A stretch of DNA of 54,400 bases from a virus (taxonomy: Duplodnaviria; Caudoviricetes), in IMG/VR virus record IMGVR_UViG_3300025087_000086, positions 1 through 54,400 of that record; one strand, given 5' to 3'. The notes below the pieces were generated by a model. It saw nothing but the letters and a program-made list of their open reading frames with translations, did not search any database and had not been told where the DNA came from. Position numbers and translations under genes: made by a program. Below, piece by piece: positions 9,998-53,801 of this stretch; within the stretch, counting starts at the first letter, position 1, and every line of letters starts with the position of its first letter.

Positions 9998-12900
9998 ATG
10001 AATCCTTGGGAAGAAGATTGGAGTTCAGTTGCCTTAGAGGAACCAGAGGCCCAAGCTACCGCTTTGCCTTGGGAAGAGGACTGGTCTGCTTCGTCTTTGA
10101 TGAATACAGAAGAGGAAGAGAAACTTGAGAAGATTAAAGAACAGCCAGTTACTTATCAACCCCCCGCTGGCATAGAGAGTGCCTTAGCTACTGCTGAAGC
10201 CCCAATAAACAGTGAGGATAAATTTAGCCGTACAGTACTATCAAAAAACGAAGAAACTAAATTTCAACAATGGATTCACTCAACTCCCTGGTATTCTGAA
10301 TATGTGCAGAGGTATGGTGAAGAGCCAGACTTTAACACCCCTGATTATGATTATCGTGGGGCTTGGAAGTCAGGCGTAAAGCCTGAGAGAAGTGAAATAG
10401 ATGGTCAATATCATTGGGGTAGTGTCAGGCCAGATACAGGAGAATATTTAAAATCAGCTAATCATCCAACTTTTTGGAAACAAAAATTCATAGAGAAAAA
10501 TGGATACGATCCTGATAAATCTCCTATTACTCTAGAGACAAAACCCAAACCAGAGAAGAAGTTCTATAGGAAAGACGACCTCGGAGAGTACCAGCGAACA
10601 CAGGACATCGGTTCTCTAGAGTTCATGTGGGATGATATTAAGCAAGCTCCATTTGAAATCGCTAAGAATATCGGTACTATACTTAAGCTTGGGGGTAATG
10701 TCTTTAAATCTGATGAAGGTATAACGTACAGAGAACAGAGAAACAAAGAAAAACCAGGGACATTCACTGCTGCTCAGACTTATGTAGGTGGAGCAATAAC
10801 TGAAAGCATAGACAAAGTAGCATCTATAGCAGAGAAACTTGGGACTACTGCGACTGATTACTACAGGAATAAGTCAGAAGAGATTCAACAAGTTGCTGCT
10901 GTGTATCCCCATATCTGGGAGAACCCAGCTCAGCTAGTTGATCCGAAATATATTGCCAGTACTCTGATCCCAACATTCCGTGATATGGGTGTAGCCTATG
11001 CTGCTGCGTCCTTGACCGGGGGTATTGCTGCTCCTCTGGTTTTCGGTACTGTCATGGGTGCCGAGACAGCATTGCCCAACTACGAAGAGAACATTCGTAA
11101 AGGCATGGACCCAACGCTTGCTGGGCAGACTTTTGCTACTCAGTTCGTAGTGACATCTGTACTTAACTCTTCATTCGTAGCGAAATCCCTAGGACTTGGA
11201 GATGACGCATTTAAAGGAGTAGCCACTAGAAAAGGGGTCTCTGGTAATATTCTCTCTCGCTTAGAGGCTGGAGCCCATGCTGGTCTAAGGGAAATGCCAG
11301 TTGAGTACTTGGATGAGGTAACTCAGAACACTACAAATCTAGTCGCTACAAAGATGGATGAGGGAAAAGACCTCAAGACAGTAGCTCAAGAAACCAGTAA
11401 AGAATTACCAAGTATCTTTCTTAATGCACTTGATGTAATCCCCGCTGCTGGTGTATCCGCTGGTGGTATTGCTACTGCTGCATACAGACCAGGGACCAAA
11501 GATGATCCAGAAACTTCCAAGGAGAACAGGCAGACTGAAGCGGCTATAGACAAAGTATTGGAAGATGCTGGAATCCCAGGGAAACAAGAGAATTCTTACC
11601 AAGATTCAATGAGTCTCTCTGGCTCTCAGGTGTTCGGTATTACCTCAACCTACACTTCCAGTAATGTTCCGTTTGGTCTAGACTTACCAGAGACACCTAA
11701 GCCAGAACCTAAGGCATCTGGAGCAGAAGTCGCCTTCGGCCAAGTTGGGATATCACAAGGAGACCTTAGTGGTGGAGCTGCTGTGTTTACCGAGGGTGGT
11801 GGGCTTCGAGTCTCTAACCAAGGGACTGTACAAGAAGTTGCAGAAAGTGCAACTGTTAGTACACCAGCCGCCCCTGAGACTACACCAGCTACCCAAGTAT
11901 CAGAAGCATCACCAGAGACCCCAGTGGCATCTCCAGTTCCAATTGAGACTCCTGCGGCTACCCCCGTAGCTGTTCCACAGGAAACTGCTCCTAGCCCTCT
12001 TGTAGCCCCTGGAATCCCTACTCCCTCTGAGACGCCCAGTGCTTCAGAGGTCCCTAGTGTTCCAGTGTCTCCAGAGACAACTTCGGTACTCTCCCCCAAA
12101 GCCAAACCTGCTGCATCTCTCTCTGAAGAACAGAGAATAGCCCAGGAAACAGTAGCTAAGGAGTCAGAGATAGCTAAGGCGTTCATAGAAGGCGGCATAG
12201 ACTCTCTGTATGCTACAGTGGATTCACTGTATAAGCAGAGGATCTCTTCGTACAATAAGCTAGATGTAACTGGGAAGTCTCGGGTTAAGAAACCTAGTAA
12301 GCGGGGCATTTATGACGAGTTGATCCAAGAAGCAGAAGCAGAGAGGATTGCTGCTGGGTATAATGAGAACTTCAAAGTAGTGGCTGAAGAGGTTGCTGAA
12401 GAAGTGCTGGGTAACGAGGCTCCCTCTGCTGTAAAAAAAGAGAAACGAGGAAAGCTTGTCTGGTCTACTAAAGAGGACGGGGTAGACACGGCTACTGATG
12501 GTACCAGTAACTACTACATAACCAAGAACACTAAGCCCGATGGAACAAACGAGGAGGGTTACATTCTGTGGAAAGGCAAAGAGAATGTAGGCGTCTTCGG
12601 TTCCAAACGAGCAGCTAAGATGTCGTTGGTTCCAGAGACCAAGTTCGAGATCAAACGAGACACTGGGAAATCTGATTACTTTCGTGTAGTGTCTACGGCT
12701 ACTGGTCAAGCTGTTATGCCTACTGGTTTCAAGAAGAAGTGGATGGCTGAAGAGTTCTTACGGAGACTAGAAGCTGATCCCAAGATGAACAAGTCTCAAG
12801 CAGCTAAAGAGATTAGGGAACTTAAGAATAAACCGAGTACTGGGGCCAAGGTATCTGGGAAAATCCTAGTACCCAAGACAGTTAAGACTGAGCCGGTTCT

Positions 12901-15900
12901 GGATACTGAGAAAGAAGCGAAGGAAGTCGAAGCCAAGAAGCAAGCTGAGATTAGGAAACAAGAAGAGGCTAAGGCGAAGGAAGCTGGTACTAAGATATCT
13001 GAAGAAGAGAAGAAACTCATAGCTGAGCGTCATGCCTACAATACTAAGCGAGCTAAGATTCAGAAAGAAGTAGATGAACAGAAGCGTTCTCCGAAAGACC
13101 TCTTGCCGACTTGGGAAGAGTACCAGAGGAAGCTGAGTAAAGCCCAGCCCAAGCAATTAGAATTAAAAAAGAAAGAACAAGAAGAGAAGAAAGCGAATGC
13201 AGAGAGGGAAGCTAAAGCTAAGGAAAAAAAGGAGGCTCAGGCTGAAGAGAGAGCAAAGGAAGAAGAAGCTGGAGATGCTGAGAAGACTATCACTCCAGAG
13301 CAGACCAAAGAGATCAAAGAAATCCCAGAAGATAAGTTCGAGAAACCCCAGAGAGCTAAGACTAAGAGTAAGATTATCCCAGTCACCAAGGGAATCAGGA
13401 CTCGATCAGTAAAGATTATAGAGACGCTACAAAGTATTCTAGGTCTCTCCGACTGGACTATAGTAGTAGCTGATATCAACCAATTCCGAGATATGCAGAG
13501 TAACAAAGCTGCGTCAGAGGACATAGGATTTAATGAGAACCTAGATAATGATGTGATTCTATTCCTAATCAGTGAAGGGAAAGACTACGCTATAGATAAA
13601 GACCGGAGTACTAACGGTTCTATCTACTCTTTCGTAGAGAACAGGCAGCTAATCCTTTCCATAGATGAGTCCAAGTTCGCTGGTATCAAAGGATCAGTCC
13701 GGGCTATGGGTATCATTGCTCATGAACTGGGCCATGCTGTAGCAAACCGAATCCTAGCTAACATGAATGCAGTAGATCGGAATCAGATTCTTGATAAGAT
13801 GATAGACGACTACTCTGACTACTATGCAAAGACCTTTGAGAGCCACATGAGACTTGGGGAGACTTTGTTAATCTCTCGAAGTGCAGCTAGTAGAGTTCAG
13901 CTAAGAAATCATATTGAAGAGACAATACTGGGGAACACTAGTAAAGATATTCCAATAGATACAATGTCTACTCCAAGTACCAAAGCTTACGTTAGCTACC
14001 TCACCAGCTTCAACGAGTGGTTTGCTGACCAAGTAGCTAAATATGTTGAGCATGATGTAGCAGTAGTGTCTAAGTTCGACCAGTTCATGAAGGGCTTTGC
14101 GGATACAGTACTAAAGGCTATTAGTATCATCAATGAATTTGCTGGATTCGATGTAATCCCAATGTCTAAACCAGCGGAGTCAGTAGCGAATTTTATTAAG
14201 GATATCGGTTCAGTTGCATACGGTTCAGACAAGGGACAGTTTGATAAGAGCTGGAATGAGAATCGAAAGTGGTTACTCAGGCAGCAACTAGACGGAAGAC
14301 AGAGAGCAGTAAAGCTAGCTGCGACTTCTTCGTATGTGAATAGCCTCTCTGACCATAAAGCTTATGTGGATGGGGTATCAGACTATGCGAGGGGCCACAA
14401 GCCAAAGAGCGCCCAAGTACCCGATAAGGACACTGGAGTACCCACGGACCCCTTTTATGATAACGATAATGCTCTTTTAGACGATCAAGGGAATCCCCCG
14501 TTTGTGTTCCATGGTTCACCAGAGATACTGAATGGGGCCATAGATACTTCTATCGGTAACAAGATGAACTACTTAGGCGCTGGATTCAATGTGACATCTT
14601 CAGCCGAAGACGCTTCATTGAATTACAGCGGAAATGGCACTGGGATGCTTTACTCCTACATGGTCAAGATGTCAAAACCATTCTATGTGAACGATAGTGA
14701 CAATGCTATGCCAATGCTGTCCAAAGATATAGAAGCCTTTATTCAAGGGATCAAGAAAGAGTCTAAGAAGTACCCCAAGGAAGTTAGAGAACGATTTAAT
14801 GAAATCGTAGGCACTTTACAAGAATCTGCCGACATAAATGAACCAGTGGACTCCACTGATATCTGGTCAATGTTCCAAGAGAATTTAGGTCAAGACTTTG
14901 GCATTTATGTTAGAGACAACGAGGGAGACAGGACTTCCGCTGGATACATATTGAATAATGTACTCAGGGATATTGGTTATGATGGAATAGTTCTGAACGC
15001 TGGAGCCGAGATGGGCTTCTCCGCTGGAGGGGATTCTATATTTACTGCTACTGGGATGAGTGGGATTACAGAGGACACTGTACACTATCTCATGTTTAAC
15101 AGCAGTGATCTGATAGATATTACCCAAGGAGTGGACTCTGAATCCAGTCTTCCGGGAATTCCAGATAGCTCAAAAGGGTTAGCTAACGAGAACATAGTCA
15201 CTTTCTCTGGATTAGGAGGAAGCATCGAGACTTCTGCTAAAGTGAGTTTCTCTAGTGTCTCCAGAGACAACTCAGCTACTACTAAGATTCCAGGGGAGAC
15301 TAGGTTACAACGTAGGAAACGGGAGCGCCTTGAAGCTGCTGGAGGTAATGCTGGCTTAGTGTCTGCTCAGACTGGACTCATTATGGAAACCGTAGAGGAA
15401 GCTAAGGAGACTTTCGCTCAGTCCAGATCATTCTCAGCTAAGCAAAGACGGATGGCTGAGCGGGTTCTGAACAACTTAAAGGACATAGTAAAGACCAACT
15501 TAGAGTCCGCTGCTGATAGGCTTGAGCAGATATCCCCTTCTCTGATGAGAAAAGTAAATAAGTATGTGATGTATGTGAACACTAAGAATGCAGATCATAA
15601 GAAACGAGTGTCCCCGTTTATCGGATTCGTCTCGAAACAGATGACAGCAGAAGACGCTGACTTGTTTGGCCTTTATCTCAGTAACGGTAAGGAGACTGAC
15701 TGGAAACAAGTTGAGAAGATGTTCGCTAAGTACCCAGGGCTAGAGAAGCACTGGAAAGATACCGAAGCTGTTCTTATGGAAATCCGTAAGGCAGCAGAAG
15801 AAGTGGGCCTTTCCATGGAAAACCTAGTGGACAACTACTTCCCAAGGAAAGTGAATGATGTAGACGGGTTACGAAGGTATCTATACGGAGATGACTCAGT

Positions 15901-17611
15901 AGGGAAGATCAATGATGAAATCCGTAGAGCTAAGGTCTATGCAGAGAAACACAGTATCCCGTTCACAGACAAAGACGAAGCTGACATAATCAACCAGATG
16001 ATATCTACTGGGAGATACTATGGACATCTCCAGAAACCAGGGGCTCTAAAGGAGAGAAACATTCAACGAGTGAATTCTGCCATGCTCTCTCAGTTCTACT
16101 CTCACCCAATGGAAGCACTAACTGCTCATATCTACGAGATGAATGAAGCCATTGGTCAGAGGATAGTGATTGGCCATAAGCTAAGGAAAGCTAAGATGGC
16201 TGAGCTAGTGAGACAGGAGAAGAAGCTTGAGAGATCAGAAGAGGGTTCTAAGGAGCGTAAGCGGTTAATAGAGAAGGTCAAGGGATTAAGGAATTACTTG
16301 TTCGACGTAGATAACAAGAATGAACTGAATGATTCCATAAGTAACTTCATTCAGGCTGAGATATCTTCTGGATCACTTAAGGGGAAAGACGCCGATGAAG
16401 TACTGACTATCCTCCGAGCAAGGATGATGGAGAAGGGAATCTATGGGTGGACTAATACAATAAGGAACGTAGGGCTTATTTCCACTCTAGCTGATTTTAC
16501 TTCACTCATTACTCAGAGCTCTGAGGTAGTGTTCTCTATGTATCGGAACGGAATGCTGAGATCACTAGCGGCTTTGGTACAGACTAAGGAGATCACTGCT
16601 GAGATGTTTGATCTTAGGTCAGCTCAGTATGAGTGGCAGCAAGAAGGATCAGCTAAGTGGGTCTCCAAGATTCTGAAACTCACTGGGTTCTCTGCTGCTG
16701 ACATCTTCATGAAAGAGTCCGCTATGCAAGCGACCCTAGGGAAGTGGAGATCAGTAGCGAGGAAGGGAGACGCAAAGAGCCTAACGAAGTTCAGGAAACA
16801 TTGGTCTCCTTATTTTGGGGAAGACGTAGAGACTCTATTAGTAGACCTCCAGAGTAACGAGGTTACTGATACAATCAAAGAGATGGCGTGGGCTGACCTC
16901 CTCAAGTACCAGCCACTAGATGTCATAGCTAATCCTATTGGGTACATGACAGGTGGGAGAACTAGGATTTTCTGGATGCTAAAGACTTTCCAACTTAGAG
17001 CGGTCAATGCGCTGTACCGAGAGTCAGTTAGGGAGGTGCAAAAGGGCAATGTAGCTAAAGGTATTAAGAATCTCATGTATCTCACGTTCTTGATGGTCAT
17101 GGGGGGAGCTGGGAAAGATGAGCTACGGGACCTGTGGCTTGGGAGAAAAACTGGACTCTCGGATCAGTTGTCCAATAATCTTTGGAGTATCTTTCTCATG
17201 TCGAATTATGAAATCAGTAACATAGGGAAATCTGGACATGGCCCTATGTGGAGCGTAGCGTCTAAGATACTCCCCCCTGATACTATAGTAGATACTATAG
17301 TTATGGACGTTGTTAAGACTGCCCAGGGGAAACCTACTTATAACACAATCAAGCATTTCCCGGTAGTGGGCAAGGTGTTCCACTCAAGGTTCACTGAGGC
17401 TGGGAGAACCAAGGAATCCGGGAGACAGAAGAGTCAGTTCTTAGCAGAGCTTAGAGATAATGTAAGTAACCCAAGGGAATTACGAAGGATTAGGAATCAG
17501 ATACTAGAGTACAATAGAGAGCGTCTTGTCTCTGGAGACAGAGAAAACATTATATCGACCACTAGCATTTCTAGGGTCATTAACGATGAAAAGAAAAAGA
17601 GAAAGGAGTAA
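9998..17611 (+). CDS. Giant polyvalent internal virion protein (zincin-like HExxH and ADP-ribosyltransferase-like domains)
   Basis: 2537 aa. IAHELGHA plus NEWFAD (about 13710-14045); VFHGS...LGAGFNVT...GYDGIV...YLMF (about 14475-15115); helical C-terminal ejection-type region. Confidence 0.7.
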   Translation: MNPWEEDWSSVALEEPEAQATALPWEEDWSASSLMNTEEEEKLEKIKEQPVTYQPPAGIESALATAEAPINSEDKFSRTVLSKNEETKFQQWIHSTPWYSEYVQRYGEEPDFNTPDYDYRGAWKSGVKPERSEIDGQYHWGSVRPDTGEYLKSANHPTFWKQKFIEKNGYDPDKSPITLETKPKPEKKFYRKDDLGEYQRTQDIGSLEFMWDDIKQAPFEIAKNIGTILKLGGNVFKSDEGITYREQRNKEKPGTFTAAQTYVGGAITESIDKVASIAEKLGTTATDYYRNKSEEIQQVAAVYPHIWENPAQLVDPKYIASTLIPTFRDMGVAYAAASLTGGIAAPLVFGTVMGAETALPNYEENIRKGMDPTLAGQTFATQFVVTSVLNSSFVAKSLGLGDDAFKGVATRKGVSGNILSRLEAGAHAGLREMPVEYLDEVTQNTTNLVATKMDEGKDLKTVAQETSKELPSIFLNALDVIPAAGVSAGGIATAAYRPGTKDDPETSKENRQTEAAIDKVLEDAGIPGKQENSYQDSMSLSGSQVFGITSTYTSSNVPFGLDLPETPKPEPKASGAEVAFGQVGISQGDLSGGAAVFTEGGGLRVSNQGTVQEVAESATVSTPAAPETTPATQVSEASPETPVASPVPIETPAATPVAVPQETAPSPLVAPGIPTPSETPSASEVPSVPVSPETTSVLSPKAKPAASLSEEQRIAQETVAKESEIAKAFIEGGIDSLYATVDSLYKQRISSYNKLDVTGKSRVKKPSKRGIYDELIQEAEAERIAAGYNENFKVVAEEVAEEVLGNEAPSAVKKEKRGKLVWSTKEDGVDTATDGTSNYYITKNTKPDGTNEEGYILWKGKENVGVFGSKRAAKMSLVPETKFEIKRDTGKSDYFRVVSTATGQAVMPTGFKKKWMAEEFLRRLEADPKMNKSQAAKEIRELKNKPSTGAKVSGKILVPKTVKTEPVLDTEKEAKEVEAKKQAEIRKQEEAKAKEAGTKISEEEKKLIAERHAYNTKRAKIQKEVDEQKRSPKDLLPTWEEYQRKLSKAQPKQLELKKKEQEEKKANAEREAKAKEKKEAQAEERAKEEEAGDAEKTITPEQTKEIKEIPEDKFEKPQRAKTKSKIIPVTKGIRTRSVKIIETLQSILGLSDWTIVVADINQFRDMQSNKAASEDIGFNENLDNDVILFLISEGKDYAIDKDRSTNGSIYSFVENRQLILSIDESKFAGIKGSVRAMGIIAHELGHAVANRILANMNAVDRNQILDKMIDDYSDYYAKTFESHMRLGETLLISRSAASRVQLRNHIEETILGNTSKDIPIDTMSTPSTKAYVSYLTSFNEWFADQVAKYVEHDVAVVSKFDQFMKGFADTVLKAISIINEFAGFDVIPMSKPAESVANFIKDIGSVAYGSDKGQFDKSWNENRKWLLRQQLDGRQRAVKLAATSSYVNSLSDHKAYVDGVSDYARGHKPKSAQVPDKDTGVPTDPFYDNDNALLDDQGNPPFVFHGSPEILNGAIDTSIGNKMNYLGAGFNVTSSAEDASLNYSGNGTGMLYSYMVKMSKPFYVNDSDNAMPMLSKDIEAFIQGIKKESKKYPKEVRERFNEIVGTLQESADINEPVDSTDIWSMFQENLGQDFGIYVRDNEGDRTSAGYILNNVLRDIGYDGIVLNAGAEMGFSAGGDSIFTATGMSGITEDTVHYLMFNSSDLIDITQGVDSESSLPGIPDSSKGLANENIVTFSGLGGSIETSAKVSFSSVSRDNSATTKIPGETRLQRRKRERLEAAGGNAGLVSAQTGLIMETVEEAKETFAQSRSFSAKQRRMAERVLNNLKDIVKTNLESAADRLEQISPSLMRKVNKYVMYVNTKNADHKKRVSPFIGFVSKQMTAEDADLFGLYLSNGKETDWKQVEKMFAKYPGLEKHWKDTEAVLMEIRKAAEEVGLSMENLVDNYFPRKVNDVDGLRRYLYGDDSVGKINDEIRRAKVYAEKHSIPFTDKDEADIINQMISTGRYYGHLQKPGALKERNIQRVNSAMLSQFYSHPMEALTAHIYEMNEAIGQRIVIGHKLRKAKMAELVRQEKKLERSEEGSKERKRLIEKVKGLRNYLFDVDNKNELNDSISNFIQAEISSGSLKGKDADEVLTILRARMMEKGIYGWTNTIRNVGLISTLADFTSLITQSSEVVFSMYRNGMLRSLAALVQTKEITAEMFDLRSAQYEWQQEGSAKWVSKILKLTGFSAADIFMKESAMQATLGKWRSVARKGDAKSLTKFRKHWSPYFGEDVETLLVDLQSNEVTDTIKEMAWADLLKYQPLDVIANPIGYMTGGRTRIFWMLKTFQLRAVNALYRESVREVQKGNVAKGIKNLMYLTFLMVMGGAGKDELRDLWLGRKTGLSDQLSNNLWSIFLMSNYEISNIGKSGHGPMWSVASKILPPDTIVDTIVMDVVKTAQGKPTYNTIKHFPVVGKVFHSRFTEAGRTKESGRQKSQFLAELRDNVSNPRELRRIRNQILEYNRERLVSGDRENIISTTSISRVINDEKKKRKE

Positions 17612-23388: not shown

Positions 23389-23430
23389 AGCCAGAGAGTA
23401 CCAAGGTTCAATCCTTAGTACCCTCTGGCT
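23389..23430 (-). terminator. Intrinsic terminator at the convergence of the two transcription directions
   Basis: 18-bp stem fully paired on the - strand (two G-U), followed by CUUUU. Confidence 0.7.
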
Positions 23431-33820: not shown

Positions 33821-33896
33821 TGGTGTTCCCAGGTGGAGTCGAACCAACCATCAATCTGTTATAAGCAGATCGCTCTAGCCGTTGAGCTATGGGAAC
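33821..33896 (-). tRNA. tRNA-Ile (UAU)
   Basis: Acceptor GTTCCCA/TGGGAAC, anticodon arm ATCTG-CTTATAA-CAGAT, TTCGA T-loop, encoded CCA. Confidence 0.85.
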
Positions 33897-33917
33897 ATTT
33901 GGATTGCTTAATGCAAC

Positions 33918-33993
33918 TGGAGCCACAGGGAAGACTCGAACTCCCATGTTCCCGCTTACAAGGCGGGAGCTTTGCCAATTAAGCTACTGTGGC
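33918..33993 (-). tRNA. tRNA-Thr (UGU)
   Basis: Acceptor GCCACAG/CTGTGGC, anticodon arm CCCGC-CTTGTAA-GCGGG, encoded CCA. Confidence 0.92.
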
Positions 33994-33999
33994 TAATAC

Positions 34000-34101
34000 T
34001 AAGAGTGCCAGGGGATTCGAACCCCTGCTTGCAACCTGCTTGCTTTAAAGGGAATCGAACCCTTTACCTACTTTGGTAGGTGTACACCAGTAGCACTCTT
34101 A
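34000..34101 (-). ncRNA. tRNA-like RNA with two T-arms
   Basis: Closing stem TAAGAGTGC/GCACTCTTA; hairpins TAAAGGG-TTCGATT-CCCTTTA and CAGGGG-TTCGAAT-CCCCTG. Confidence 0.6.
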
Positions 34102-34106
34102 TGAAC

Positions 34107-34182
34107 TGGCTCCAGAGCCAGGACTCGAACTTGGAATACCTTGGTTAACAGCCAAGTGTCTTGCCAATTAGACTACTCTGGA
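34107..34182 (-). tRNA. tRNA-Asn (GUU)
   Basis: Acceptor TCCAGAG/CTCTGGA, anticodon arm CTTGG-CTGTTAA-CCAAG, encoded CCA. Confidence 0.92.
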
Positions 34183-34193
34183 GTGTATTCTAG

Positions 34194-34343
34194 TTATTCT
34201 GTCTCTGTTGGTTTCCTTAAAAGCGTAAGTGCATGAGCTAAACTAGCTATAGCTTGAGCAAATTGCTGCGCTTCAAACGCACTCTTCGTGTCTGTTAATG
34301 ATTTCGTTAGTTCCTCTATTGCGTTTTCAAGTTTCTTTTCCAT
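34194..34343 (-). CDS. 49-aa helical protein inside the tRNA cluster (not in ORF track)
   Basis: MEKKLENAIEELTKSLTDTKSAFEAQQFAQAIASLAHALTLLRKPTETE; AGGAG RBS. Confidence 0.6.
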   Translation of the reverse strand: MEKKLENAIEELTKSLTDTKSAFEAQQFAQAIASLAHALTLLRKPTETE

Positions 34344-34417
34344 AGGGTTTCATCTCCTAATCTCCGTCAGTTTTAGAACCAACCTAATGCGGCTGAGTTA
34401 GGCTGGTTAAACAGGTA

Positions 34418-34503
34418 TCTGTCTCTAGTACCTAGACCCTCAGCTCAGTACCGAGGGCTTCCTGAGCCCGTTTCCCTGCTAAGCAATCGTCTCTAGAGAC
34501 AGA
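34418..34503 (-). ncRNA. Putative structured RNA element
   Basis: Perfect 11-bp closing stem TCTGTCTCTAG/CTAGAGACAGA with internal hairpins. Confidence 0.4.
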
Positions 34504-34525
34504 CTCCATTGGCCTCTCTGCTATC

Positions 34526-34612
34526 TGGTCCAAGTGGAGAGACTCGAACTCTCACGCCCTAACGAGCGGCAGTCCCTAAAACTGCTGTGGCTACCAGTTA
34601 CACCACACTTGG
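34526..34612 (-). tRNA. tRNA-Leu (UAG)
   Basis: Acceptor CCAAGTG/CACTTGG, anticodon arm GCAGT-TTTAGGG-ACTGC, long variable arm, encoded CCA. Confidence 0.9.
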
Positions 34613-37694: not shown

Positions 37695-37937
37695 TCAAGT
37701 ATATGTAAGTAATTGAATTGGTTCAAAGTCTTCTTTCTCCCCCCACCATGGAACTTCCCGGTCTTTATCAAAAGTATTAAACTGGTTTTCAGTTATAAAT
37801 CCGAAGCAGTCCCCTCTAGTTCCGAGGATAAGCACTAAACTTCCGACTTCTATACACTCACTAATTGAGTCAGTAGTCTCTCCATCCCTGCTCTTGAGTA
37901 CTGCATAGTATGGCTCATCAAAATATTTTGTACTCAT
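37695..37937 (-). CDS. Hypothetical protein
   Basis: 80 aa, ATGA coupling. Confidence 0.55.
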   Translation of the reverse strand: MSTKYFDEPYYAVLKSRDGETTDSISECIEVGSLVLILGTRGDCFGFITENQFNTFDKDREVPWWGEKEDFEPIQLLTYT

Positions 37938-38545
37938 CCCAGTACCCCCTTACCCTTGTGTATAATAGTCTTTATAGCCAGAGCCACAGTCTGCCTTGAT
38001 ACCCCGAGCCTCTTAGCTACCTCTTGATCCGAGTTGCCATAGTGTAAGTAAAGTTCAAGTATCTCTCTTTGCCTAGCAGTGAGTTTGGCTTTGCTTAGTA
38101 CGTCTTCAAGCTCCAGCTCAATGGTGTGGTGGTCTGCCTTAGGATCATCTATGCTCTCTTCAAAATTAATAGGCTCAGGGATATCCCATATATGGGATTC
38201 ATTATTTATTATCTCTTCTATAGAATACTTAGATTCCTTAGTATTACCTTTGCTCTTCTTAGTACTCTTATATCTAAAATTCCTATACTCTTTTCTTTCA
38301 TAAAGGTAACAAGAAAACAGTACCCTCTGGTATACAAAGGTATTCATTGGTACCCCTAGGTCCGGGTTGAACATATGCCTTGCTTCCATGAGCCAGATGA
38401 AAGCCTCTTGCTCCATGTCCTCCCTGAAAGGCTGAAGGTGCTTCTTGAATGAGATGAATTTATTTACTACATACTTACAAAAAGATATATCGTTCTTGAT
38501 ATCTTTGTCATCGTACTGAAATTTCCCAGCTCTAGGTTCACTCAT
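37934..38545 (-). CDS. Sigma-70-family-like transcription factor (regions 2 and 4)
   Basis: EDMEQEAFIWLMEARHMFNPDLGVPMNTFV (region 2); LTARQREIL...SDQEVAKRLGVSRQTV (region 4 HTH). Confidence 0.82.
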   Translation of the reverse strand: MSEPRAGKFQYDDKDIKNDISFCKYVVNKFISFKKHLQPFREDMEQEAFIWLMEARHMFNPDLGVPMNTFVYQRVLFSCYLYERKEYRNFRYKSTKKSKGNTKESKYSIEEIINNESHIWDIPEPINFEESIDDPKADHHTIELELEDVLSKAKLTARQREILELYLHYGNSDQEVAKRLGVSRQTVALAIKTIIHKGKGVLG

Positions 38546-51228: not shown

Positions 51229-51534
51229 TTACTTCGTAACCTCGGGAGTCCAGTTAGCCACGTTATTGTGGATGCGCTTGAAGTTCAGTTTACGGACGAA
51301 CTTTACTATGTTTCCATCTGCATCTTCCTTGGTATCCCAATACACGGATACATCATGTTTAGCCGCTATGAACTTGCGAGTCTTCGCAGTACGCTCCACA
51401 GTGCCCATACGGATAGGGTGAGATGTGCACTTGTCTTTCCTACGTTTCCCAGGATTCGGCATAACGCCAGTGTCAAATGACCCGTGATTCCCTACACCTT
51501 TGGGAACGTCATAGTATGCGTAGTGCTTCTTCAT
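51229..51534 (-). CDS. Hypothetical basic early protein
   Basis: GGAGG RBS before MKKHYAY. Confidence 0.6.
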   Translation of the reverse strand: MKKHYAYYDVPKGVGNHGSFDTGVMPNPGKRRKDKCTSHPIRMGTVERTAKTRKFIAAKHDVSVYWDTKEDADGNIVKFVRKLNFKRIHNNVANWTPEVTK

Positions 51535-51544
51535 AGTGCCTCCA

Positions 51545-51667
51545 TTATCTGTGGATATAACGATAAAGTCTATCGCTGATAATCCTGTCCATTCGCTGCA
51601 AGTCATATGCATAGTACCACATACCTGGGGTCACATAGGCCCACAATTTGAAGTCATTAATGCTCAT
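51545..51667 (-). CDS. 40-aa first early ORF (not in ORF track)
   Basis: GGAGG RBS; MSINDFKLWAYVTPGMWYYAYDLQRMDRIISDRLYRYIHR. Confidence 0.5.
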   Translation of the reverse strand: MSINDFKLWAYVTPGMWYYAYDLQRMDRIISDRLYRYIHR

Positions 51668-51702
51668 GGTTTCCTCCATTATCGCTGGTTTTCACTGGTA
51701 TT

Positions 51703-51763
51703 CAAAGACTCCATAGTGCCAGTACTAGGGCACACTCACTAGTACTAGCACTAGCAATCTTTG
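51703..51763 (-). promoter_or_regulatory. Long hairpin, RNase III-type processing site candidate
   Basis: 15-bp stem with a G-U pair on the - strand plus outer CAAAGA/TCTTTG. Confidence 0.5.
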
Positions 51764-51799
51764 CAACCTGTCACAGTGCACTTTGCCTATTCGCTTACT

Positions 51800-52080
51800 A
51801 CTTGATCCGTGGACTTTCACAGATTGCCACACAAGGGCATTCAGCGTCTAGGTCAGTCGGTGAAGGTGTCACCACTCAGTTCAACCGAGGGCTGCGAAGT
51901 CTCAAGTGGAGCGCACTTGATTCCCTGTTCGTCTGCCTTGTCGTATCCGTTTGACTCCCTTCGCTTGAGCCGTTCTCCCAGGCTTTCACTGGGCAACTCG
52001 TCATTCGGACACCCTGTTTCCAGCCAGAAATCGGGAATCGTTGGCAGCCAAAGTGTCTCTGGAGACAACTCCTTTGGAGT
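51800..52080 (-). ncRNA. Highly structured early-leader RNA
   Basis: At least nine nested or adjacent helices whose non-Watson-Crick positions resolve as G-U on the - strand. Confidence 0.55.
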
Positions 52081-52116
52081 TCAAGCGTATACGTAGGCAA
52101 GCATAATGCTACACAT

Positions 52117-52318
52117 GTGTTGCACACACCAAATGAGCGTTGCACCATGTGTTGCATGGTACTACATATAGCGTGTGTCTTATCTTATGAATGCCACACA
52201 AGTGTTGCATAAGCGTACGCAATCATAAGACTAATACGCATAAGCGTTGCATAAGCGAACAGAGTGTTGCAGCTTGGGTGTCTTCCCCTGTAATTCCGAG
52301 CACTTAGCATGTGTTGCA
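52117..52318 (+). repeat. Seven GYGTTGCA direct repeats
   Basis: Copies at 52117, 52137, 52149, 52202, 52244, 52264 and 52311. Confidence 0.8.
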
Positions 52319-52658
52319 CCCGGTGGGGTCTTGCGCGTAACGGGGAGGGGCATGCGTCGCGGGGAAAGTAGACCCCCCGAGTCACCGGGGAGATGGTCAC
52401 ACTCTCCCCCAGATTCCTAAAAATATTCTATACTTACCCTTACCCAAGACTCTCCGATGAATTAGTAAAATATCGTATCACTTTAGCAAAACGACTTACA
52501 TAGAATACATAAGTATATACTATAGAACTGGTTACTAGATAAAGATACCTATAGGGATTCTTATATTAAGAGTATAAAAAGCCTACCTAGGGAAACTATA
52601 TAAATAAGAGTACTAAAGGAAACTAGGTAAACTAAGTAAAAAAGAGACAAAGAGTACA

Positions 52659-53801
52659 ATGAAATCCAAAGAAGATACAACTGAAAATCTAGTAAACATC
52701 TCTGAGAAACTGGGTAATACATTATGCTCCCCTAATGTCATCCAGGGTGAGCTAGAGAACTCCCTAGATGAACCAGTAAACACCTTTGAGTCTAAGGAAC
52801 AAAAAGAAATAGATGGGCTTAGTAAACCTCTGTCTCTCAAGAATAGAAATAAAACAAAGAAGCCTAAGAAAACTAAGCAAGGCCATTTGGTTACTAGGAA
52901 GAGAACAATAGACGAATCTAAGCTCACCCCAGAGAAACAATGGGAAATAGCTAAAGAATACACAGATGGTATTCTTAATGTTTCTCAGTTAGCAGAGAAA
53001 TATAATACATCCCCAGAAAACATTGGACTCATTGCTTCTCGATGTTGGAAGAATTTTACTAACATGAGAGAGACCAGAGCCCTAATGTCATTTGGCTCAG
53101 CCAGTTCTCAGTACTCCCTTAAAGTATTACATAACACTAACCTCATCAACCAACAGTTTTTAGATTTACTTTCAGTTTCTGGGACTGAGATCACTCTAAC
53201 CGATGCGGAGTCCATCTACGCTTGGATATATGTCCATACCGGAGAGAACCAGATGGCGTTGGAACAAGCTGGTTTGAACGCTGGTTTACTGCATTCTAAG
53301 AGTGATCCAAATAAAGCCCAGCCCAACTACGAGAAAGCCTGTTCATTGCGTGGGATGTACCTTAGGTCGCTTCCCAATGTCGCGTCTTATATCAAAGAAC
53401 TCAGAGAAAGACGGTTCATTGACCAGGATATCAGTAAAGCCAGGGTACAGTCTGAGCTCTTAGATCAGCTCAGTCAGCTAAAGGAAAGTGGAGACCCGAG
53501 GAATAAAACCCATATTCTGAAAACCATAGAGTTGTTAGGTAAGACAATCGGAGCGTTTATTGAACGAGTCGAAGTAACTGAGATTGATCCAAACAAAGCA
53601 TTGGACAACCTCATCGACATGGCGAAGACTGGAGCGGTGAGGGAGCTGCATAGGAACCAAGCTAAGTTGCCAGAGAAGACCAAGGAATCTGCTGATAGGT
53701 TTGTTTCTCACTGTGGAGATAAAAAGAAATCAGTCACTACTTATGTGTCTCCAGAGACAAATGAAGAATACCGAATAGAAGAGTGGGAAATTCAGGAGTA
53801 A
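52659..53801 (+). CDS. terS: Probable terminase small subunit with HTH
   Basis: HTH LNVSQLAEKYNTSPENI; PNVASYIKELR...KTIELLGKTIGAFIERVEV; directly upstream of terL. Confidence 0.75.
   Translation: MKSKEDTTENLVNISEKLGNTLCSPNVIQGELENSLDEPVNTFESKEQKEIDGLSKPLSLKNRNKTKKPKKTKQGHLVTRKRTIDESKLTPEKQWEIAKEYTDGILNVSQLAEKYNTSPENIGLIASRCWKNFTNMRETRALMSFGSASSQYSLKVLHNTNLINQQFLDLLSVSGTEITLTDAESIYAWIYVHTGENQMALEQAGLNAGLLHSKSDPNKAQPNYEKACSLRGMYLRSLPNVASYIKELRERRFIDQDISKARVQSELLDQLSQLKESGDPRNKTHILKTIELLGKTIGAFIERVEVTEIDPNKALDNLIDMAKTGAVRELHRNQAKLPEKTKESADRFVSHCGDKKKSVTTYVSPETNEEYRIEEWEIQE

Follow-up and report, generated by a model that had tools for sequence, protein, structure and literature searches.

In the early RNA of phage T7, the first RNase III site lies in the leader upstream of gene 0.3, and in phage lambda the leader of the N gene contains nutL together with an RNase III-sensitive hairpin before the start of N. 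The CI RNA of P4 and the c4 RNA of P1 are released from a leader by processing. The polycistronic early precursor of T7 has been described as carrying five RNase III signals, and the idealised E. coli substrate of the enzyme as a duplex of 22 bp, that is two helical turns, with at least 11 bp from the cleavage site (PMC3867540). A different use of structured early RNA is represented by put, an RNA of ~70 nt with two stem-loops that occurs twice per genome (putL and putR) downstream of an early promoter and suppresses termination in cis via the zinc-binding domain of the RNA polymerase beta' subunit (PMC9378689). Finally, a catalogue of 10,006 candidate structured RNAs has been compiled from viral sequences in IMG/VR (Fremin et al. 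2023, PMC10690425).

Here we describe an element on the minus strand of a 54.4-kb linear virus contig with an estimated completeness of ~65% ("the window" hereafter means this whole stretch of DNA). Its source is an uncultured phage from groundwater samples, and the element, of ~380 bases, precedes the first gene of the leftward early/replication operon. A sequence-only reading had proposed a large nested RNA structure at 51800-52080. As judged from homologous sequences, the element is a real, conserved, strand-specific structured RNA, wider and differently organised than first proposed.

The arrangement resembles the T7 early leader: tandem promoter-like elements precede a leader a few hundred nucleotides long, a long irregular hairpin (here P14) comes a few tens of nucleotides ahead of the first early gene, and the replication genes (DNA polymerase and primase-helicase) are distantly T7-like. 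P14 is placed where the early RNA of T7 and the leader of lambda N have their first RNase III site. In contrast to T7, there is no sequence similarity, the phage encodes a sigma factor, and a scan of 20 large ORFs in the window (~65% of the genome) recognised no gene for a T7-type RNA polymerase. Furthermore, the T7 leader is not known to carry a counterpart of the ~13 further conserved helices upstream of P14. With lambda, the locus shares a long structured leader to the first early gene and a double-stranded processing site (a candidate one here) just 5' of the ribosome-binding site; unlike lambda, the phage has its ribosome-binding site outside the structure, and no boxA/boxB-like element or N-like protein was identified in it. 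The 22 predicted pairs of P14 equal the two-turn length of the idealised RNase III substrate (PMC3867540).

Like put as characterised in PMC9378689, the element is a cis-encoded structured RNA that has no known protein partner and lies just 3' of an early phage promoter (presumed here). Unlike put, it comprises ~380 nt, ~14 helices and 17 helix segments and is present in a single copy in the window (~65% of the genome); with a structure spanning ~375 nt it falls outside the size and fold by which put RNAs are recognised. With the candidates of the IMG/VR catalogue it has in common that, in data of the same kind, a covariation-supported, candidate cis-regulatory structure is found 5' of a phage gene, and it differs in being longer than the typical terminator- or tRNA-like candidates (PMC10690425). 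The contig numbers of the relatives were not found in the six of nine supplementary files searched, and the element may still be part of that catalogue.

Genome setting and the upstream repeat array

The plus-strand genes (1-23165, and from 52659 onward) encode a tail fibre protein, an amidase-like protein and the terminase large subunit. The 380-aa ORF 5' of the last, for which no family match was found, is presumably the small terminase, an assignment from position only. The minus-strand block (51679 down to 23935) encodes a primase-helicase, a family-A DNA polymerase, ribonucleotide reductase, RNA ligase and CobT/CobS-like proteins, and also holds a sigma factor and four tRNAs. The best GenBank phage matches of the DNA polymerase are T7-like cyanopodovirus polymerases with ~31% identity, and the lineage is without a close cultured relative. 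Protein atlas look-ups returned no named family for the early proteins of 225 aa and 102 aa, and only three relatives of the 240-aa early protein were found in a set of 5.8 billion proteins.

Some further features of the contig may be recorded here. The sigma factor (37934-38545, minus strand) is of the sigma-70 family, with regions 2 and 4, and the tRNAs (33821-34612, minus strand) are Ile-TAT, Thr-TGT, Asn-GTT and Leu-TAG. The structural block contains an ORF of 2537 aa (9998-17611, plus strand) with no PHROG match and no PDB sequence match; its sole Pfam match, to the ADP-ribosyltransferase of polyvalent proteins, was sub-threshold (21.6 bits where the cutoff is 31.2; E 4e-4). In the terminase-large-subunit-like ORF at the contig end (53809-54399, plus strand), residues 47-197 also match helicase-loader and primase PHROGs, and this double match could reflect an intein or a shared domain.

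The element sits in a divergent spacer of ~980 nt between the small-terminase-like gene (52659, plus strand) and the first leftward ORF (ATG 51667, minus strand). The GGAGG-N5-ATG of this ORF is kept across all homologues, and the 40-aa ORF itself is found in the relative L004 too. Directly 5' of the element lies an array of TGCAACRC repeats (Table 1). The pattern has eight matches in the window, seven of them in the array, and none of 100 shuffles reached eight. Start-to-start spacings of 20, 42, 53, 12 and 20 nt are near multiples of the helical turn, and one of 47 nt is not. The last copy forms half of an 18-bp near-palindrome (52107-52124). A motif copy had been noted at the 5' edge of the proposed structure; the copy exists (TGCAACAC at 52117-52124) and lies 37 nt 5' of the edge then given.

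The array varies among relatives, with ~8-9 copies in L010. L004 has no TGCAACRC and carries other short repeats in its place between conserved flanks, as if a promoter/operator or iteron cassette had been exchanged. We suggest that the variable repeat/palindrome array is probably the early promoter-operator region. Wherever sequence reaches, the alignable conserved structure starts at P1, and L004 can be aligned only from there, 3' of the replaced array. A promoter consensus scan placed no convincing or conserved promoter; the sole sigma-70-like site between P14 and the gene was not found in L010, and its transcript start would fall inside the ribosome-binding site.

Two other features of the spacer were observed. 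A G+C-rich hairpin of 8 pairs followed by a T-rich tail (52373-52392, minus strand) lies 5' of the array and runs antisense to the terminase promoter region. L010 and L004 retain it, with a T-G pair changed to C-G. The contigs of the relatives L002, L003, L008, L009, L011, L012 and L013 begin or end at the equivalents of 52150-52560, which suggests strain-level variability or assembly-breaking repeats, or possibly a genome end.

Conserved structure on the minus strand

Homologues were found by an IMG/VR scan guided by the 240-aa early protein, which yielded two contigs, and by a metagenome scan with an alignment of the same protein, which yielded seven loci. When the small-terminase-like protein or its alignment served as the IMG/VR query, two and four loci, respectively, were returned, two of which stop ~100-150 nt upstream of the gene and so are without the element. 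Within the region of the element the full-length variants number four, namely the window, L012, L009 (identical to L010) and L004 (identical to L005, L011 and L014), while L013 and L008 are partial; L006, L007 and L017-L020 are the same contigs again and not extra variants. The covariation sample therefore comprises only four full-length and two partial distinct variants, from one habitat type. They were aligned as A3 (seven sequences), A4 (four) and A5 (six). Across the element the variants are 74-83% identical to the window, and the neighbouring gene is 86-90% identical at the DNA level. No match was found among GenBank phages by blastn of 51500-52500, and no member in 185,579 prokaryote genomes searched by DNA pattern and protein alignment. 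In IMG/VR, scanning for two of the conserved blocks as patterns returned just the two contigs already found. Of the 12 sequencing runs listed, none was of RNA, and the contigs of four DNA runs contained known variants only.

Folded as a single sequence, the 281 nt at 51800-52080 had a minimum free energy (MFE) of -89.2 kcal/mol (z -0.54), with 60 of 200 shuffles equal or better, and the opposite strand gave z +0.81. Stability alone gives this interval no support, and a stability no better than that of shuffles is the very outcome that the sequence-only reading had named as speaking against it. The whole leader, 51700-52085, reached z -3.19 (1 of 100 shuffles), its MFE structure including the nested outer helices of that reading, and the sub-domain 51940-52020 gave z -2.52.

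The comparison of homologues did support the structure. RNAalifold applied to A5 returned a consensus fold of 96 pairs in 17 helix segments, in which 97.1% of 558 cells were paired, compared with 33-39% when the 3' partners were slid by one to three columns. Pairs changed on both sides numbered 23 against 0-2 in the slid controls, and the observed values were reached by none of 500 shuffles on four measures and by 2 of 500 on a fifth. At least one compensatory pair was present in 11 of the 17 helix segments, and several columns showed three different Watson-Crick pairs. For the four full-length sequences the RNAalifold energy was -103.1 kcal/mol, compared with -57.6 +/- 5.1 in 100 column shuffles (z -8.9), and the structure conservation index (SCI) was 0.81, compared with 0.52 in the shuffles (maximum 0.61). 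The first 413 nt of the neighbouring gene, a coding control taken through the same procedure, gave z +0.15; the structure test is therefore not positive by default. Thus the covariation among homologues for which the sequence-only reading had called was found, and its claim of conserved RNA-type secondary structure on the minus strand, 5' of the first leftward gene, is borne out by the comparison. The conserved structure reaches past 51800-52080 at both sides.

The pairs comprised 483 Watson-Crick, 59 G-U, 6 C-A and 10 other cells. The consensus energy was -103.1 on the minus and -84.2 on the plus strand, the reverse complement being weaker and, as is unavoidable, also significant. Since G-U cells are so much more frequent than C-A cells and the reverse complement is weaker, the structure is assigned to the minus strand and RNA is favoured. 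The earlier observation that the non-Watson-Crick positions are G-T (G-U in RNA) on the minus strand was correct. These data bear on whether the conserved unit could instead be an element of duplex or single-stranded DNA, such as a replication origin, a priming signal, or a packaging signal beside the small terminase gene. The setting would suit such an element: it adjoins the seven direct repeats and the near-palindrome, it lies where the gene blocks diverge and the cumulative GC skew has its minimum, it is next to the terminase genes, and the relatives' contigs often break nearby. However, the 59 G-U (G-T) cells, many of them invariant, and the strand asymmetry suit RNA over duplex DNA, the compensation runs via wobble intermediates, and the change in the direction of transcription explains the switch in GC skew equally well. 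We therefore regard a DNA-level element as very improbable.

The element is not protein-coding. ORFs of 71, 93 and 95 aa overlap it in the window, and conservation of these ORFs as proteins would have spoken for a small protein; their frames are broken by indels (the variants' indels are 23, 21, 24, 2 and 1 nt long), no reading frame is open in all sequences across the element, L004 has other ORFs here than the window does, and none of the three window ORFs has a Pfam match. Substitutions are flat across codon positions (18/18/16, 20/20/18 and 26/22/20). A small protein, or else chance pairings in a fast-evolving spacer without any functional element, for which the z of -0.54 of the 281 nt might be cited, is thus extremely improbable, the covariation and structure-conservation tests being far beyond their controls.

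As far as Rfam goes, the expectation that the RNA is undescribed also held: Rfam 15 at gathering scores returned only three tRNA matches from the whole window, all elsewhere, and a search of 51600-52700 at E up to 5 returned only mir-345 (18 bits, E 0.79; gathering score 65).

A predicted chain of stem-loops

The architecture that the comparison supports is a chain of ~14 local stem-loops, 52081-51706 on the minus strand, and not a single nested fold. From 5' to 3' the predicted order is P1, P2, P3, P4-P5, P6-P7, P8, P9, P10-P11(-P12), P13 and P14 (Table 1).

Table 1. Features of the element and its immediate flanks, in minus-strand order
Feature	Position	Strand	Basis
Array of seven TGCAACRC copies directly 5' of the element	52107..52318	-	pattern scan
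P1, 6-bp hairpin AACUCC-AAA-GGAGUU, first conserved helix	52067..52081	-	covariation
P2 (tentative), CCAGAGA/UUUCUGG and UUGG/CCGA around a variable 13-nt loop	52024..52062	-	RNAalifold, 4 sequences
P3, CUG-GAAA-CAG mini-hairpin with GNRA-type loop	52014..52023	-	invariant in all covering sequences, uninformative
P4-P5 domain, GUGNC/GNUAC and (A)UGAC/GUCA(A), conserved apical region	51943..52012	-	covariation
Window-only 23-nt insertion in the P4-P5 domain, GAGUUG/CGGCUC and CCCAG-UGAAAGC-CUGGG	51967-51999	-	A3
P6-P7 domain, GGC..ACG / CG..GCC stem with hairpin UCAAGUG-CGCUC-CACUUGA	51890..51937	-	covariation
P8, CUCGGU-UGA-ACUGAG hairpin	51875..51889	-	97.2% of cells paired
P9, (U)GGUGA-CACCU-UCACC(G) hairpin	51858..51874	-	covariation
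P10-P11 domain	51784..51855	-	covariation
P12, optional hairpin AUCUGUG-AAAGUC-CACGGAU	51805-51824	-	21-nt indel
P13, 5-bp hairpin GCACU...GUUGC	51763..51779	-	covariation
P14, terminal hairpin, 22 predicted pairs	51706..51760	-	covariation and stability
GGAGG (51677-51673), conserved ATG (51667) and first small ORF (40 aa) of the leftward operon	51545..51677	-	sequence

P1 is fully paired in each of its forms (AACUCC/GGAGUU, AACCCU/AGGGUU and AACCAC/GUGGUU), with three of six pairs changed on both sides and 100% of cells pairing. The P2 helix is tentative: a single C-G to U-G change is the only variation in its pairs, which show no covariation, and in L012 the loop sequence is replaced and the stem retained. 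Its loop contains the GGCUGC and GAUUCCC segments that had been assigned to the outer helices of the nested model. Within the P4-P5 domain, one column pair of P4 (89/153) occurs as C-G, A-U and U-A, and two of P5 (95/147 and 97/145) show three pair types each; the 23-nt insertion is missing from all six other sequences of A3. P6 is paired in 92.6% of cells and has three pairs in which both partners have changed (at 163/210, for example, G-C has become U-A), and in P7 three of seven pairs covary with 100% of cells paired. In P8 the changes are one-sided (G-U to G-C) and none is compensatory, and L004 has one C-A break. In P9 a G-C pair is flipped to C-G in L012 and L013 and retained in the otherwise similar L008; the two coordinated changes recur in contigs of run X3, at 51859 and 51873. 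The helices of the P10-P11 domain (12, 13 and 15) have one, two and one pairs changed on both sides and 93-96% of cells paired, and P13 has four of five pairs so changed and 96.7% of cells pairing. P12 is present in the window, L009 and L010 and missing from L012, L013, L008 and L004.

In L008 (~240-265; columns 343-366 of A5) a 24-nt insertion forms a hairpin, GTTGACA-CTTTCT-TGTCAAC, between P13 and P14, and is the third independent hairpin-sized indel of the leader. No other good copy of the hairpin insertions was found dispersed in the window.

All complementary segments quoted in the sequence-only reading are present on the minus strand near the places named, and across six homologous sequences its 11 helices fared unequally: four covary, two are conserved and uninformative, three are lineage-specific hairpin insertions, and the two outer closing helices are contradicted. 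The covarying ones are GTGTC/GATAC, TGAC/GTCA, TCAAGTG/CACTTGA and GGTGA/TCACC. CTG-GAAA-CAG is conserved, and being invariant says nothing on pairing, while CTCGGT/ACTGAG is conserved with one-sided variation only and one break. GAGTTG/CGGCTC and CCCAG/CTGGG are present as drawn and belong to the insertion unique to the window; ATCTGTG/CACGGAT is likewise present and belongs to the indel limited to the window, L009 and L010 (three of the seven sequences of A3). The two helices that would enclose the rest, and with them the large nested architecture, fail in the relatives. GGCTGC/GCAGCC has 79% of cells paired, four of six pairs broken in some relative and no compensatory change, and TTCCC/GGGAA has 80% of cells paired with disruptive changes only and none compensatory. 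GCAGCC pairs instead locally with GGCAG in P6, and this pairing covaries (GGC/GCC to GUC/GAC).

The two loops said to share GTGAAAGYC do carry it (51812-51820 and 51981-51989), but its role as a functional signature is not supported: the loops are dispensable because both lie in optional hairpin indels. The pattern has three matches in the window against ~1 expected, and 5 of 100 shuffles reach three; no further good copy of a GTGAAAGYC hairpin was found elsewhere in the window.

Candidate long-range pairings were also considered and rejected. CUGG/CCAG, which would join P2 to the region of the ribosome-binding site, has two pairs broken in some relative and no covariation; a GUC/GAC pairing that would close the core fails in one of four A4 sequences; the partner in an ACAAG/CUUGU pseudoknot varies without compensation (by eye); and a CGAUUC-CCGA / UCGG-GAAUUG helix that appears when L009 and L004 are folded singly has mismatches in the window and L012. 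Long-range or tertiary pairing thus found no support among these sequences, and the 5' part, folded from single sequences, takes different forms in different relatives. Comparative evidence can therefore save a structure that fails a single-sequence stability test, and it can also overturn the most striking helices of that structure.

The terminal hairpin and possible roles of the element

P14 consists of a 15-bp core and an extension in which an A-run pairs with a U-run, and 100% of its cells pair. Its sequence is nearly invariant, with two compensatory changes in L004 and a U-G intermediate in L009. The fold of 51690-51775 has -37.7 kcal/mol and z -5.45 (0 of 200 shuffles), and P14 ranks third in stability among the 10,866 70-nt windows of the contig. 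It ends ~30 nt 5' of the ribosome-binding site, for which no sequestration is predicted, GGAGG being unpaired in the consensus fold. P14 is followed by UCUUU in three of four lineages and by UUUUU in L009. Its U-run of 3 nt (5 in L009) lies within the extended stem, paired with the A-run; the criterion for an intrinsic terminator is a U-rich tract directly after a G+C-rich stem. P14 was not called by a terminator consensus scan of the window and L010.

Where the two gene blocks converge, an 18-pair hairpin followed by CTTTTAAT (23389-23430, minus strand) is the most stable 70-nt window of the contig, and it is probably the terminator that ends the leftward operon. In style, with a long stem and a short U tract, P14 is like this hairpin.

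We propose, with about even confidence, that the element is a cis-acting 5' untranslated leader of ~415 nt belonging to the early operon, in which P14 would be a site of processing or stabilisation, or else a weak attenuator. We favour this reading because the element is positioned between the promoter-operator-like cassette and the first ribosome-binding site, and because no conserved promoter was found in the 30-nt gap after P14. The leader would be carried on the operon's own transcript and act on it in cis. Compact folding and the 5' hairpin would protect the long untranslated RNA, and P14, as a double-strand-specific (RNase III-type) processing or stability site or as a weak attenuator, would set the 5' end and the level of the early mRNA, the ribosome-binding site being left free by the structure. 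Transcription, the transcript start, the action in cis and any role of RNase III are all matters that we infer.

The terminal hairpin could also be read as the end of a separate transcript. The element would then be a stand-alone non-coding RNA of ~380 nt, with a promoter in or after the array and P14 as an intrinsic terminator, acting in trans as a decoy, sponge or regulator; in a variant of this, the RNA might be freed from the leader through processing, as the P4 and P1 RNAs are. Its sharp borders, with P1 at the 5' end and a very stable hairpin with a U-run at the 3' end, agree with such an RNA, as do the resemblance of P14 to the operon-end terminator of the phage, the ribosome-binding site untouched by the structure, and the peripheral hairpin indels, which are typical of folded RNAs. 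On the other hand, the short U-run (UCUUU in three of four lineages) is paired in the stem, the scan did not call P14, and the downstream genes would be left with a 30-nt gap without a conserved promoter. We consider a stand-alone RNA rather unlikely.

A hairpin that resembles a terminator directly after the element is also what would be expected if the nascent leader, like put of HK022, bound RNA polymerase and brought about processive read-through of P14 and of later terminators. The position 3' of the presumed early promoter matches that of putL (PMC9378689), and none of the first genes was recognised as encoding an N- or Q-like protein. This reading is nevertheless improbable, given the size and fold of put as described above, the absence of sequence or Rfam similarity, and the fact that the conserved hairpin motifs are single, with no second copy in the window. 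Moreover, terminator-like sites in the leftward operon are at chance when compared with shuffles (19 vs 13.8 +/- 3.9 and 6 vs 8.8 +/- 2.7).

It is unlikely, and yet worth stating, that the element represents a new class of large multi-domain phage RNA acting on the transcription or replication machinery. Such an RNA could be a put-like modifier of RNA polymerase with a new and much larger fold, or a pre-primer like ColE1 RNA II beside an iteron-like array that would mark the origin. The invariant single-stranded blocks CGAUUUCUGG, UACGACAAG and GCUCCA and the GAAA loop would then be contact sites.

The element sits at the control point of the early/replication operon. Phage RNAs of several hundred nucleotides with so many covarying helices are uncommon, and this one is without a match to a curated family. 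Action in cis, as in the leader that we propose, would make it a new example of phage control over the level, the ends or the stability of the first transcripts; with RNA polymerase or replication as its target, it would represent a new functional class of RNA.
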